Origin: Chiloscyllium plagiosum
Taxonomy: Eukaryota
Direction of reading: 5' to 3'
Assembly (NCBI RefSeq): GCF_004010195.1
Contig: NC_057751.1
Coordinates: 15,244,597-15,308,596 of the forward strand
Length of the DNA stretch: 64,000 bases
The notes below the pieces were generated by a model. The model searched no databases, was not told where the DNA came from, and saw nothing but the letters and a program-made list of their open reading frames with translations. The position numbers and the translations under genes were made by a program. Of the stretch, positions 37,601 to 43,600 are shown one piece after another (position 1 is the first letter of the stretch; each line of letters starts with the position of its first letter).

Positions 37601-40600
37601 ACCCCATTGCTCATCTATATGTGTGACTGAAGGTTCGTCACCTCCTTACAGCGAGAGAATGGGGGAGGAATGACTGCAATACATAGCTTGGGACAAAGTA
37701 CCTGAGGCCTCCAGCCCATGATGCTGAGGGAAGGACACTGACAAAGACAGGAATGAACAGGTCCAACAACCTAATCTCGGACGTTTGATAATGCCAAGAA
37801 GACTGACTCACTGAATCCCCAGTTGTCACATTATTCCATTTCCCTGAGAGCACTGTGCAATACAGGGGCATGACAGAGGTGACTAGTAAATTTATTCAAA
37901 AAGGAATCAGATTTTAAATGGACTGACCATAGAGTTGGAACTACAGGGCCAACTATGATTCGGGGGTTTGTCCTCCCCTTCTCATTTCTGAGCCTAATTG
38001 GCAACTGCATTGGAAATGGGGAAGAAAATCACTTTCGGACCTGCAACCACATTTCACCAAAACTCTCCCTGCACTTTACCTTGTGTCAAAGTGGGCAGCT
38101 TCTGAGAAGAAACCGACAGGACTCAGGCACAACTGCAAACTAGTGTTATCGGAAGCATGTCATTAAGCTGGACAGGATTCAGAAGAGATTTGCCGGGAGT
38201 GGAGACTTTGAGTCATATGGAAAGGCTGGACGGGCTGGGACTTTTTCCACTGGAGTGCAGGAAGCTGAGAGGTCGATAATATCATGAGGGGTATAGATAC
38301 GGTGAATGGCAGGTGTCTTTTCCCAAGGGTGGGGGATTTCAGGAATATTTATAAAGGTGAGAGGAGAAAGATTTAATAAAGGCATGAAGGGTACTTCATT
38401 TTTAAAACAGAGAGTGGTTTGTGTGTGGAATGAACTTTCAGAGGAGGTGATGGATGTGCGTACAGTTACATTTCCAACACATTTGACTAAGTACATGAAT
38501 AAGAAATATTTGGGGAGATGCAGGCCAAACACAGGCAGGTGGGACTAGTTTAGTTTGGGATTAGGGCCAGCACGGACTGATTGGACTGACGGGTCTGTTT
38601 CCATGCTGGATGACTGTGACGCGCGTGCCGAACATAGAGGAGATTCTTGCTACGGCTTGCCAATATGTTCATACTCACTGTTCCTGCCTCTCTGCACTCT
38701 CATGTTCTTGACTGGAGACATCTTCCAAGCTTCCAATAATCTGTCGGAATGAGCTGCAGAAAGTTCAAGAAAAAAAGGTGGAACGCTTACATTGAAATGA
38801 TCAACATCATTCCACTCAGCTGCATAAGCAGCTTTCAGGACAGTACACAGCTACTCACTGTAGTGTATTAACCACTTAATGATCATTGATACAGTTCCGT
38901 TCTAACAGATTAGGCACCACTTTGACTAAAGATAACAAGATTAACAAGCCACTGACCAGCATGTAACAAAACGGTCACAAAGAGATGACGAGACAGTGGC
39001 CAAAATTCCTCAGTCTACCAGAAAGACAAGGATTACTGGTCATTGTTCAACTCACTACAAATGTACTGCATTTCTGGACAAATTTGGAAAATAACAGATC
39101 TTTCAATATTCAGAGAAACATGTCGAACTGTGACTGTACCCCCATTTGAAATTAGAGTTCATAATTGCTTCAGAGTTGGAGATACAGGCAATGATGGAGA
39201 GGATATGGTGTTTTAATCATTTTTTTGGCTGTTAGCAAGACATGTAACATGATGAAGAGAATAGATAACTCACGCTCATGAACTAGGTTAGGGAGGAGCA
39301 GAGAATTGCAGTCTCGTGTTGGATGGACACCTATGCCATATCAGGAGGTGGTTTCATTCTTGCTCCCCCTTGAATGGAGCCTTTCCATCTCTTCTCAGTG
39401 GTGGTCATATGGTAGGGGTGGTGCATTTGTATATGGACGTACAAAACTAACGACCAGATTCCAGGAGATTGCTGAATGTCGCCGTATGCACGGACATATC
39501 AAGGTAAGAATTAGGAACAGGAGCAGGCAAATTTGCCCCTTGAGGCTGCACCACCATGCACTAAGATCATAGCTGATCTGTCCAACCTCAAATTTGTAAT
39601 TCAGCCGACCCTCGATAACCTTGTTCAGCAAGAATCTATCCACGTCCCCCTTAAAAATATTCAAGAACTGCACTATTACCTTTTTGGGAGGGACAGACCC
39701 TCTGAGAACAAAGAAAAAACACCTTACCTCTGTCTTAAATGGGTGGTCACTTCATGTTAAACAGGATAGCGGTGGCTTGAAGCTTGGCCTCTCCTCAGTC
39801 CCTTTGTATTCTTGTAGAGATTGGAACAGATGTGAACCACCTTCCCTAACGTAATCCCAGTAGCAAATGAATACTGCAACTCCTCTGCATCCTTACACAT
39901 CTTTCAGCATGGGAGTAATCGTAAGAGGAGTGCAGTCACCCATCAGGATCTCTAATGTCAGTCAACTGAGCATCTGTGGTGCACTATGCGAACCATTAGC
40001 TTTGAACAAAATAACAGATTTGAGCTACTCACTCTTGGTCAATCACCAGGCAGATCACATCCTCCGCTGCAATCACATTGGCCAACCTGATGTCTTCTCT
40101 GTGAGGAGGGAAAACAGAAGAGATGCACTCTTCATTGTTAGCGCAAACAAGAGATCATTTTCTTCACCACCACCCACTCAAGAGTTGTTCTGTGGATTGC
40201 AAGCCAATTCCTGCCCTTCTGAGTCTGCACGTGATTAAGTTTCTTCAGCGTTGCTAAGTTCCATCACTGACTCTTCTCATACATACATACATGCAGTCAT
40301 ACAGCATGGAAACAGACCCTTTGGTCCAACTAGTCCACACTGACATACTCCCAAACTGAACTAGTCCCACCTGCCTGCATTTGGTCCGTATTCCTTCAAA
40401 CCTTTCCTGTTCATGTACTTATCCAGATGCCTTTTAAATGTTGTAACTGTCCCCACATCCACCACTTCCTCTGGAAGTTCATTCCACACACGAACCACCC
40501 TCTGTGTAAAAAAAGGTTGTCCCTCATGAATTTATTGAAACTTGCTCATCTCATCTTAAAAGTATGCCCCCACGTTTTGAACTGCCCCACCTTAGGGAAA

Positions 40601-43600
40601 AGACCCTTGCTACTCACCTTATCTATGGCTCTCAGGATTTTATAAACCTCTTTAAGGTCATCCTTCAATATCTGATTCTCCAGCCTATCTTTATAACTCA
40701 AATCCTCGAATTTTGGCAACATCCTTGTAAATGTGTTTTGAACCCTCTCCAGCTTAATAATATCCTTCCTGTAGCAGGACGACCAGAACTGCACACAGTG
40801 CTCCAGAAGAGGCCTCACCAACATCCTGTGCAACCTCAACGTGGCATCCCAATTCCTACAAGCAATGGTCTGAGCAACGAAGGCAAGTGTGTGAAATGCC
40901 TTCTTGACCACCCTGTCCAGCTGTAATGCAAATTTTGAAAAATTATATACCTCGGTCTTGTCGTTCAACAAAATGGCTCAAAGCCCTACCATTAATTGTA
41001 TAAGTCCTGCCCCTGTTTGTTTTACCAAAACGCAATACCTCGCATTTATCCAAATTAACTCCATTTGCCATTCCTCAGCTCAGTGACTCAATTGATCAAG
41101 ATCTCTTTGTAATCTTAGATAACCTTCTTCACTGTCCACTCTACCACCAACCTTGATGTCAGCGGCAAGCTTACTAACCATGTCTCCTATATTCTCATTC
41201 AAATCATCGATATACATGACAAACAAAAGTGGACCCAGTTCCTATCCCTATCAATGGTCATATACCTCCAGTCTGAAAAATAACCCTCCACGACCACCCT
41301 CTATCTCCTACCATCAAGCCAAGTTTGTATCCAATTGGCAAGTTCACCATGAATCCCATGTGATCCAACCTTACTCATTAGTCTATCACATGGAACCCCT
41401 GTCAAAGACTTTACTGAAGCCCATGTAAATAACGTCTACTACTCTACCCTCATCAATCTTTTTGATTACTTCCTCAAAAACTTAACCAAGTTTGTGAGGC
41501 ATGATTTCTGACGCACAAAACCATTCTCTTCCCCAACACACAGGTTCCAGCCTTTCCTGTCACATTCTGCACCAGTTTAACATCTGTCTGATCACAGTGC
41601 ACACAATGAAACACTGGAAACGGGGGACCCTAACATGGCACACTTTTCAAACGAGCGCTCACTCAACATTACTCAGGAGTCAGAACCTACAGCTCATCTT
41701 CCTTCGTGGTATTGAAAGTGGCTCTACCTCCTGACTATGTCAAGGCACATCAATCTCACTTCATACAATGTTACAACACAGGAGGCTGTTCAGCCCACTT
41801 TGTTAGCATTGAGGAGAAACTTTCCAGTGAACATGAAGACATGTAAAATAGAAGCAGGAGTAAGTCATTCGAAGAATTTCAAGCCAGCTCCACCATTCAA
41901 CATGATCATGGCTGATCATTCAACTCAATAGCCTGTTTCTGCTTCCCCACCCCGATATCCTTTGACCCCTGTAGCCCCAAGTATTATGACCAAATCATTC
42001 TTGAAATCATATAATATTTTGGCCCCAACCATTTTCTGTGGTGGACAATTCTACTGATTTACTACTCTTGAGGTGAAGAAATTTATCCTCATCTCGGTCA
42101 GAAATGGTTTACCCTGTAGAGGTAAACTGTCATCCCTTGGTTCTGGACTCTCCATGTCATCAGAAACATTGTTCCAGTGTTTAGCCTGTCTCGTCCAGTT
42201 CGAATTTTATGGGTTTCAACGTGATCCCTACCATCCTTCTGAATTCCAGTGATTATAATCCGAACCTATTTAACGTCTCCTCAGTCCTGCCATCCAGCAA
42301 ACAGTCTGGCAAACCTTCACTGTACTCTCTCCATCGCAACAGCATCCTTCCTCAGATAAGGAGAGTAAAACTGCACATAATACTCCCGGTGTGGCCCCAC
42401 CAAAGTCCTGAATAATTGCAGCGACATCCCTGCTCCTGTACTTGATTCGCCTTGCTACGAAAGCCAAAATACCATTTGCCTTCTTTATCACTTCCTGCAC
42501 CTGCATGCTTACCTTCAGCGACTGGTAAACAAGGATACCCCAGGTTCCATCGCACATTTCCCCCTCTCAATTTAGAGCTTCAATCCCCCTCTACCAAACT
42601 CCCTCCACTGCAACTTGTAAAAGCTACCATAGCATCTGTTTTCAGCATCTCTTTAAGCAGAGTATTTCACCTGGTGAAGCGGTCAAATGCGCTGCTGATG
42701 AGCAGCTCAAGGCTGCATCCAGACTAGCCTGGGAACAAACATTTATTTGAAAACAGTCAAGTGTTACGGAAGCGCTGAGAAAGATATAAACACACTGAAT
42801 GAACAGAGGATGGCATACCCATGTAGAGCCTTCTCTCCAAACCAGTCTCCCCTGGACAGGGTAGTGGGGAGCACTGTATCGCCAGATTTTGATTCATCTT
42901 GTGTTACAGTCACCTGCGGGCAAACATCAGGCACATGTTATGGGGGAAGAAGCAACCATTGCTGGAACTGATGGTGAGCAAGACTCCATTCAATGGGTTC
43001 AACCCAACACCACCACAACAGACAGCTCTGAAAGTCAGGACAAACACTTAGCACAACAGTTTGACACAAACGTGGGCAGACCGTAGATAAAACCCCTGAT
43101 ACATTGCATTAGATTCCAAGTGATAACTCACTCATAGGTATCTGTTGCTCTCTACATTAATCTCCCAAACCTTTTTTTACCAGGTAATTGCAGCGAATGC
43201 CTCATATGTGAGCTGGTCTCTGCTGCGTGTTTCTCCCAGTGGGGGCTGGTCTCTGCTGTGCATTTCCCCCAGTGGGGGCTGGTCTCCCCTGCATGTTTCC
43301 CCAGTGTCTGCTGGTTTCTGCTGCGTGTTTCCCCCAGTGGGGGCTGGTCTCCCCTGCGTGTTTCCCCAAGTGGGAGCCGGTACCTGCTGCGGTCCCCAGT
43401 GTCTGCTGGTTGCTGCTGAGTATTTCCCCCAGTCTGAGCTGCTTGATTCCCCCAGTGGGAGCTGGTACCTGCTGCCATAACAAGTGTGGGCCTCCCCACT
43501 GACAACACACTCACCTTGCCCTTGCTGATGATAAAGCAAGTGTCTCCACTGGCTCCCTGCCTGACAATGTAGTCTCCCTCTTTGTAATGAGTCTGCAAAG

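Follow-up and report, generated by a model that had tools for sequence, protein, structure and literature searches.

Introduction

Type I cGMP-dependent protein kinases (PKG I) are activated by cyclic GMP (cGMP) in preference to cyclic AMP (cAMP), by 60-100 fold, and this selectivity has been attributed, mainly through mutagenesis of the human enzyme, to four residues of the second cyclic nucleotide-binding domain (CNB-B). We take three of them to be Leu296, Arg297 and Thr317, numbered as in human PKG I beta throughout this text, and the fourth is the capping residue Tyr351. This choice agrees with the equivalent residues of Plasmodium PKG (PMC4412288, PMC6628679) and with what is said of the arginine and of Tyr351 in PMC9417419. 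We have analysed a 64-kb stretch of the genome of Chiloscyllium plagiosum (hereafter the window, part of contig C42 of that genome), the minus strand of which carries a PKG I-type kinase gene, PRKG1-like, where all four residues are replaced.

The closest described system is human PKG I alpha/beta (PRKG1; PDB 4KU7, 4Z07, 7LV3). Its CNB-B carries the arginine that distinguishes cGMP from cAMP, which the first domain, CNB-A, lacks, and Tyr351 caps the base; binding at the A site partly activates the kinase, and binding at the B site releases sites 3 and 4 (PMC9417419). CNB-B is more than 240-fold selective for cGMP, and substitutions in its beta5 strand and C-helix alter both selectivity and activation (PMC3765643). 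CNB-A is near non-selective, preferring cGMP by a factor of about two, and the Thr of its cassette forms a bridge between the phosphate and the guanine N2 (PMC3080414). The shark PRKG1-like protein shares with human PKG I the domain order, the alpha and beta first exons, the CNB-A pocket, Glu307 and Arg316, the contacts of sites 1-3 and Thr532. It differs from it in being the product of a separate gene, in having a CNB-B devoid of Leu296, Arg297, Thr317 and, in this species, also of Tyr351, and in carrying Ser269, Gln333, Gln338 and Gln621. It lies on the same side of the tree as the PRKG1-like proteins of the chimaera, the coelacanth, the lungfish and the ray-finned fishes, with which it has in common both the missing Arg297 and the marker residues 269, 338 and 621, but most of those keep Leu296, Thr317 and Tyr351, and only sharks and rays lose both 296 and 317 throughout.

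Other cyclic nucleotide sites resemble it in part. Similarly to the shark CNB-B, CNB-A of PKG I has a small residue (Cys173) instead of Arg at the second beta5 position, but it keeps the Leu and the cassette Thr, both absent from the shark domain, and binds tightly. CNB-B of PKG II (PRKG2) also departs from PKG I at 296, 297 and 317 (Ile, Lys and Ser in this genome), but it keeps a basic and a hydroxyl residue there and is highly cGMP-selective via C-helix contacts (PMC4565092). In Plasmodium PKG, one CNB domain of a kinase G, CNB-C, likewise lacks ligand determinants (PMC6628679, PMC4412288), but that site has lost its cassette arginine and is occluded, whereas the shark domain keeps the whole cassette; furthermore, Plasmodium keeps a selective C-terminal site, whereas in shark PRKG1-like it is the C-terminal site that is altered. 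The nucleoside-activated regulatory subunit of trypanosomatid PKA also has a hydrophobic residue right after the position of the cassette arginine, but both the cassette Arg and Ala, which are invariant in PRKG1-like, are replaced there (PMC10959531).

The gene is already annotated in databases, but no study of its pocket was found in the literature searched, outside which most subscription papers lie; PMC13537252 and PMC8144671 contributed little to the question.

The CNB-B pocket of an intact PKG I-type gene

The original prediction, made from the window, described a PKG1-type kinase with four altered CNB-B codons, and the four codons were indeed found on the minus strand at the positions that it gave, which are listed here with their exons.

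4581..54657, minus strand: exons 4-18 of the PRKG1-like gene, from the end of CNB-A through CNB-B and the kinase domain to the stop
42819..42913, minus strand: exon 7, beta4-beta5 hairpin that binds the base, with the first half of the phosphate-binding cassette and an intact Phe-Gly-Glu
42866..42868, minus strand: Pro (CCC) at human Leu296, in exon 7
42863..42865, minus strand: Thr (ACT) at human Arg297, in exon 7
40033..40098, minus strand: exon 8, cassette arginine (human Arg316, invariant) and strands 7-8
40083..40085, minus strand: Leu (TTG) at human Thr317, in exon 8
38679..38753, minus strand: exon 9, alphaB-alphaC lid, with Gln at human His338 (33/33 PRKG1-like proteins)
38702..38704, minus strand: His (CAT) at human capping Tyr351, in exon 9

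As had been claimed, exon 7 aligns without gaps to human PKG I, here to the solved chains, with its Pro and Thr falling on Leu296 and Arg297. The human PKG I beta number is the position minus 2 in P0001, the 688-residue "cGMP-dependent protein kinase 1-like" of Ch. plagiosum, and many interface residues named in PMC9417419 match the letters expected from this rule; for chain 7lv3_A, the 617 residues were assumed to be the construct 71-686 plus one residue. The identity to rodent PRKG1 (P0135) is 19/32 in exon 7, 17/22 in exon 8 and 11/25 in exon 9, which reproduces the earlier counts for exons 7 and 9, and the whole window-encoded part is about 80% identical to human PKG I.

Exons 4-18 have AG/GT ends and translate as one uninterrupted stretch of 488 residues, identical throughout to the last 488 of P0001, and the glycine loop, the catalytic loop, the DFG motif and the activation-loop Thr532 are intact, in keeping with the predicted retention of splice sites and kinase motifs. 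In the PRKG1-like protein the Pfam matches over the cut-off are PKcGMP_CC, two cNMP_binding stretches and Pkinase, and the alternative alpha and beta first exons are both present upstream in the genome. The CNB-A cassette of exon 3, which lies outside the window, is canonical, and no row that covers them departs from the CNB-A ligand residues Leu172, Cys173, Glu183, Arg192 and Thr193. The regulatory:catalytic contacts that PMC9417419 names for sites 1-3 are kept, save for conservative or scattered changes at 175, 243 and 530. What is retained thus comprises the fold, the ribose/phosphate cassette, CNB-A, the alpha and beta N-terminal zippers and the listed contacts of sites 1-3.

A 3097-base contig from run X1, which comes from an organism other than Ch. 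plagiosum, though related, and is of a kind guessed as RNA, joins exons 6, 7, 8 and 9 at the predicted junctions. Three exon differences are listed for it, two synonymous and one Ala-to-Val, none of them in the four pocket codons. As for the other runs, X8 gave nothing, X7 is mostly repeat-derived, with a depth below 1 at exon 6, and X3 is genomic. An assembly error was rejected, as the same residues occur in related sharks (Pro-Thr, Leu and His likewise in Hemiscyllium, Stegostoma, Rhincodon and Mustelus) and the X1 contig matches at the four codons. A pseudogene was rejected too, in view of the open frame, the canonical splice sites, the orthologous proteins in relatives and the spliced contig. 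PRKG1-like is an intact kinase gene. Its architecture makes it a PKG I-type kinase, but it lacks the selectivity signature of CNB-B, nor is it the orthologue of PRKG1. An AlphaFold2 model was poor (mean predicted local distance difference test score 57.5, predicted template modelling score 0.34) and was not used.

Relationship of PRKG1-like to PRKG1

The exon 14 search of the Ch. plagiosum genome gave 49 matches, four of which are PKG-like: on C42, the contig that holds the window (100% identity), on C22 (96%), on C38 (88%) and on C1 (83%). The C22 gene has the canonical Leu-Arg at 296-297, and the C38 and C1 genes are of PKG II type, with Ile-Lys at 296-297 and Ser at 317; hence, the three other PKG genes all have a basic residue at 297 (Arg on C22, Lys on both C38 and C1), which gives the loss of Arg297 in PRKG1-like its polarity. 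With the C1 gene, the C38 gene (G000:C38:27295001-27395000) makes a second one of PKG II type and brings the PKG genes to four; it is presumably the prkg3 paralogue.

In a tree of 62 proteins (quick search, unrooted split), 28 PRKG1 rows separate from 34 PRKG1-like rows (21 sharks and rays, the chimaera, coelacanth, lungfish and ray-finned fish) with a Shimodaira-Hasegawa-like approximate likelihood ratio test (SH-aLRT) value of 100. With crude outgroups (30 rows), these being PRKG2-type sequences pieced from tblastn hits, some intron-derived letters included, the PRKG1/PRKG1-like split is one change in 200/200 bootstrap trees. A Dickkopf_N match, one of 4 in the genome, lies 54,167 bases past the PRKG1-like stop on C42, and another lies about 44 kb past exon 14 on C22, each on the same strand as its PKG gene. 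This presence downstream of both genes of a Dickkopf gene, the one neighbour compared, fits a pair born from whole-genome duplication.

Together, these comparisons indicate that PRKG1-like is an old paralogue of PRKG1, with the canonical PRKG1 elsewhere in the same genome. The "PKG1-type" label therefore stands for the architecture, but the gene is not PRKG1, the canonical copy of which is on C22. The possibility that the shark PRKG1 itself had changed was rejected on account of that C22 copy and of the position of the window gene outside the 28-row PRKG1 group. Since the paralogue coexists with a normal PRKG1, the animal has not lost a cGMP-selective PKG I. The aligned tetrapod rows (5 in one alignment, 2 in another) are all canonical PRKG1, and no tetrapod PRKG1-like copy was recognised among the listed matches, not every tetrapod match having been aligned; we infer from this a loss of PRKG1-like in tetrapods. 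The teleost PRKG1-like is, we presume, the zebrafish prkg1l, no match being so labelled.

Distribution of the pocket changes

The four sites were tallied in 33 PRKG1-like rows (21 elasmobranchs, 1 chimaera and 11 bony fishes, Atractosteus being excluded as a near-copy of gar) and in 28 PRKG1 rows, two of which are identical over the tree columns.

296: PRKG1 Leu 26, Ile 2; elasmobranchs Pro 17, Ala 3, Cys 1; other PRKG1-like Leu or Met
297: PRKG1 Arg 28/28; elasmobranchs Thr 11, Ser 9, Arg 1; chimaera Ser; bony Ser 6, Thr 4, Cys 1
317: PRKG1 Thr 28; elasmobranchs Leu 17, Ser 4; chimaera Thr; bony Thr 9, Met 2
351: PRKG1 Tyr 26, Ser 1, His 1; elasmobranchs Tyr 14, His 5, Asp 2; chimaera Phe; bony Tyr 10, Asp 1

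The orthologue alignment that the original prediction had proposed thus gives a clear answer at three sites, with 297 being non-Arg in 32/33 PRKG1-like proteins and both Leu296 and Thr317 being lost in 21/21 elasmobranchs, but a patchy one at Tyr351, which is retained in 24/33. As Tyr351 is kept in 14/21 elasmobranchs, the statement that all four residues are lost, correct for this species, is true of 7 sharks only, and their loss as one trait was rejected by the tallies. These counts also make the capping change the weakest part of the finding, and the loss of Arg297 is far older and wider than could be seen from the window alone. Furthermore, the importance given to the capping change was overstated, in that His or Ser at 351 also occurs in teleost PRKG1 proteins with an otherwise canonical pocket. 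We conclude from the residues compared that the loss of Arg297 is common to the sampled jawed-fish lineages and the losses of Leu296 and Thr317 to the sampled sharks and rays, and that the loss of the capping Tyr is recent and patchy. By contrast with the base contacts, Phe305, Gly306, Glu307, Ala309, Leu310 and Arg316 are invariant in 33/33 PRKG1-like proteins, which bears out the predicted retention of FGE and Arg316.

Further alignments gave 53 more rows. The 27 PRKG1-like fish rows among them (isoforms included) have no Arg297 (0), Thr317 in 26 and Met317 in 1, and Tyr351 in all; the 26 others keep Leu-Arg and Thr, and 4 of them have Ser or His at 351. No Thr codon can become the Leu317 codon of the window in fewer than two changes, and relatives show Met and Ser at this site, the two residues that lie one step between.

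Several observations concern single lineages. Thr317 is changed to Met in three bony PRKG1-like lineages (lungfish P0125, Paramormyrops P0168 and Polymixia P0267) and in no tallied PRKG1 row. In the three skates out of three (P0229, P0227 and P0226), Ala318, two residues past the cassette arginine, is replaced by Asp. By our own count, position 318 is the site of the Carney-complex A211D substitution of PKA RI-alpha. That mutant is named in a review. The teleost PRKG1 copies without the capping Tyr (Ser in P0172, P0144, P0148 and P0165; His in P0072 and P0149), several of which are named 1a, keep Leu296, Arg297 and Thr317. Over positions 346-363 of P0001 (the CNB-B lid and the next helix), the net charge is -5 to -6 in elasmobranch PRKG1-like proteins, -3 in PRKG1 and -2 in bony PRKG1-like proteins, and Lys357 and Lys359 are gone from nearly all elasmobranch PRKG1-like proteins. 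The hinge Arg333 is changed to Gln in 5 carpet sharks.

Rates and targeting of the changes

Amino-acid changes were counted by parsimony on an assumed species tree. Over positions 105-639, 13 of the 459 sites conserved in PRKG1 have their residue nearly absent from PRKG1-like, including 269, 297, 338 and 621, and 8 of the 363 sites common to PRKG1 and bony PRKG1-like are changed in essentially all elasmobranchs. Sites 296 and 317 are two of these eight (hypergeometric p 0.0013, or p 0.003 within CNB-B alone, for sites chosen post hoc), which points to a targeted loss of guanine reading rather than to a collapse of the domain.

Among the 21 elasmobranchs, the changes per site amount to 2.84 in beta4-beta5, 1.77 in the lid (2.27 for hairpin and lid together), 0.80 in the cassette, 0.66 in the rest of CNB-B, 0.62 in CNB-A and 0.45 in the kinase domain, where 185/245 positions are invariant. 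The relaxed constraint on CNB-B that had been offered as the alternative explanation holds for the hairpin and lid, which change about 3.5 times faster, but not for the CNB-B core, which is no faster than CNB-A (p 0.78). Pro296 and Leu317, with 2 changes each, are not unusually conserved, and they are replaced in skates. From these sequence patterns, the changes look more like a release from guanine reading than like the making of a new specific pocket.

Other features of the locus

The remaining exons of the gene, some of them past the high end of the window on C42, are as follows.

G000:C42, about 15344246: exon 1-alpha, outside the window
G000:C42, about 15335509: exon 1-beta, outside the window
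G000:C42, about 15326941: exon 2, outside the window
G000:C42:15310323-15310451: exon 3, CNB-A canonical cassette, outside the window
54552..54657, minus strand: exon 4, end of CNB-A and interdomain helix
45682..45745, minus strand: exon 5, start of CNB-B
43515..43592, minus strand: exon 6, CNB-B strands 1-3, with Ser at human Arg269, a marker of the PRKG1-like clade
11659..36566, minus strand: exons 10-15, kinase domain, with glycine loop, catalytic loop, DFG and activation-loop Thr532
9144..9206, minus strand: exon 16, alphaH-alphaI loop docking the CNB-B alphaB helix, with Gln at human Leu621
4581..5182, minus strand: exons 17-18, AGC tail and stop codon

Gln621 is found in 32/32 PRKG1-like rows that have a residue at this position. 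An annotated isoform, P0206, uses a short extra first exon in intron 2 (L022:7085-7126, on G000:C42), and its protein would begin inside CNB-A, without the zipper or the autoinhibitory sequence. Intron 7 contains remnants of high-copy repeats (window positions 40300-41500 and 41850-42600) with very high read depth, which look like CR1-type long interspersed element (LINE) pieces.

Discussion

We propose, with middling confidence and by analogy with human PKG I, that the guanine-reading residues of the PRKG1-like CNB-B were lost stepwise, that this domain is likely weak and non-selective, and that the kinase is gated mainly via CNB-A, with poor separation of cGMP from cAMP. With Arg297 missing clade-wide, beta5 resembles that of the non-selective CNB-A (Leu-Cys there; Leu-Ser, Leu-Thr or Leu-Cys in PRKG1-like), and the ancestral PRKG1-like CNB-B would have turned A-like on this strand. 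In elasmobranchs, the contact to N2 and the Leu that packs on the base would then have been dropped, and the remaining pocket may still hold the cyclic phosphate but would read the base weakly. In human PKG I, CNB-B gives selectivity and full release of the kinase; a weakened CNB-B would thus be expected to raise the cGMP need, and we predict a much smaller cGMP/cAMP ratio and a response to either messenger through CNB-A. The clade-wide changes of His338 to Gln (alphaB helix) and of Leu621 to Gln (alphaH-alphaI loop) fall within the pair of structures that make up docking site 4 between CNB-B and the kinase, and, more speculatively, Gln338 and Gln621 may loosen the site-4 brake. A bolder form of the proposal, which we regard as unlikely, is that sharks and rays possess a PKG I-type kinase, with PKG I zippers and kinase domain, that would answer cAMP as well as or better than cGMP.

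Several points weigh against this proposal. All its functional claims are transferred from human PKG I, and the loss of PKG I residues is not a proof of lost selectivity, since PKG II is about 500-fold selective by other contacts (PMC4565092). Nor is the invariance of Arg316 a sure sign of binding, since its counterpart in CNB-A is required for autoinhibition (PMC9417419). The p values given above are post hoc, the four sites having been chosen for differing in this sequence, and Arg297 alone, as one of 13 diagnostic sites among 459, is not significant (p 0.11). In 7 matched species, PRKG1-like and PRKG1 underwent 61 versus 2 changes in the kinase domain, 33 versus 11 in CNB-A and 201 versus 22 over the tallied domains; the whole paralogue being faster than PRKG1 (about 9 times), some general relaxation is real, and the fast hairpin takes in a surface loop that may be variable anyway. 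Under the crude PRKG2-type outgroups, the base of the tree is an open fork (bootstrap 65). Finally, the skate Rhinoraja (P0226) has, unlike the rest of the clade, Arg at both 297 and 269, its other sites being altered as in skates (296 Ala, 317 Ser, 318 Asp); this may reflect a reversion, a gene conversion or a local shift of the alignment.

How far the loss of base reading has gone, and whether it was compensated, separates the other explanations. CNB-B might bind no cyclic nucleotide at physiological levels and serve as a structural spacer docked on the kinase, like the Plasmodium CNB-C, which would leave a one-site PKG with partial or high-threshold activation. Such an outcome, unlikely in our judgement, would suit a decay that looks progressive, from Thr317 turned to Met in the three bony lineages and to Leu or Ser in elasmobranchs, to the Asp318 of the three skates, the repeated loss of the cap, the Gln333 of the five carpet sharks and the unremarkable conservation of Pro296 and Leu317, all the more as the cassette arginine is also structural (PMC9417419). 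However, the cassette residues 305-307, 309, 310 and 316 are invariant and Tyr351 is mostly kept, whereas the proven dead site of Plasmodium has no arginine and its pocket is occluded (PMC6628679). Conversely, CNB-B may have been retooled in elasmobranchs for cAMP or another cyclic nucleotide, yielding a PKG I-type kinase driven by cAMP. The guanine O6/N7 and N2 contacts are removed and the cyclic-phosphate contacts spared, the residue of PKA that corresponds to Thr317 is a non-polar Ala (T193/A210; PMC3080414), Pro296 and Leu317 each occur in 17/21 species, and Glu350 is invariant in the 21/21 elasmobranchs and the chimaera. We nevertheless find retooling distinctly improbable, as no new adenine-reading residue was identified, skates and Narcine have in turn replaced the new residues, and the adjacent positions 294-295 are free to vary (6 and 7 changes). 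Nor is a non-cyclic ligand likely, since the switch of trypanosome PKA to nucleosides involved the replacement of the cassette Arg and Ala (PMC10959531), which PRKG1-like keeps.

A CNB-B that is still cGMP-selective through other contacts, as in PKG II, would make the enzyme an ordinary PKG I in its behaviour. The CNB-B of PKG II owes its selectivity to C-helix polar contacts that PKG I lacks (PMC4565092), the elasmobranch lid is more acidic (-5 to -6 versus -3) with its invariant Glu350, and Ser or Thr297 could hydrogen-bond N7, as Cys173 does in CNB-A (PMC3080414). On the other hand, the PKG II-type genes of this genome keep Ser317 and Lys297, whereas 17/21 elasmobranch PRKG1-like proteins have neither, and the lid is among the fastest-changing parts; we hold this explanation to be no more probable than retooling. 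As for a decaying or non-functional duplicate, or errors of assembly, the fast evolution of the paralogue and the absence of a recognised tetrapod copy among the listed matches speak in their favour, but the open frame, the canonical splice sites, the orthologues in 21 elasmobranch species, the many invariant kinase positions and the spliced contig of a related organism make them very improbable indeed.

If its CNB-B reads the base poorly, as we propose, PRKG1-like offers a natural test of second-messenger decoding in the PKG family. Its members form a natural graded series, in which Arg297 is lost (gar, sturgeon, coelacanth and most teleosts), then Leu296 and Thr317 (sharks and rays) and, last, Tyr351 (some sharks) or Ala318 (skates), with the unchanged PRKG1 of each species as a control. 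With this series, it can be put directly to the test whether a PKG can be gated by CNB-A on its own and how cross-activation by cAMP arises. The zebrafish prkg1l is listed simply under human PRKG1 in a review table (PMC12498267). If it is the teleost member, then a gene that may decode messengers in a different way would be one that studies on fish regard as redundant. Were the shark and ray enzymes to answer cAMP as well as or better than cGMP, vertebrates would have a built-in pathway from cAMP to PKG substrates beside a normal PRKG1.

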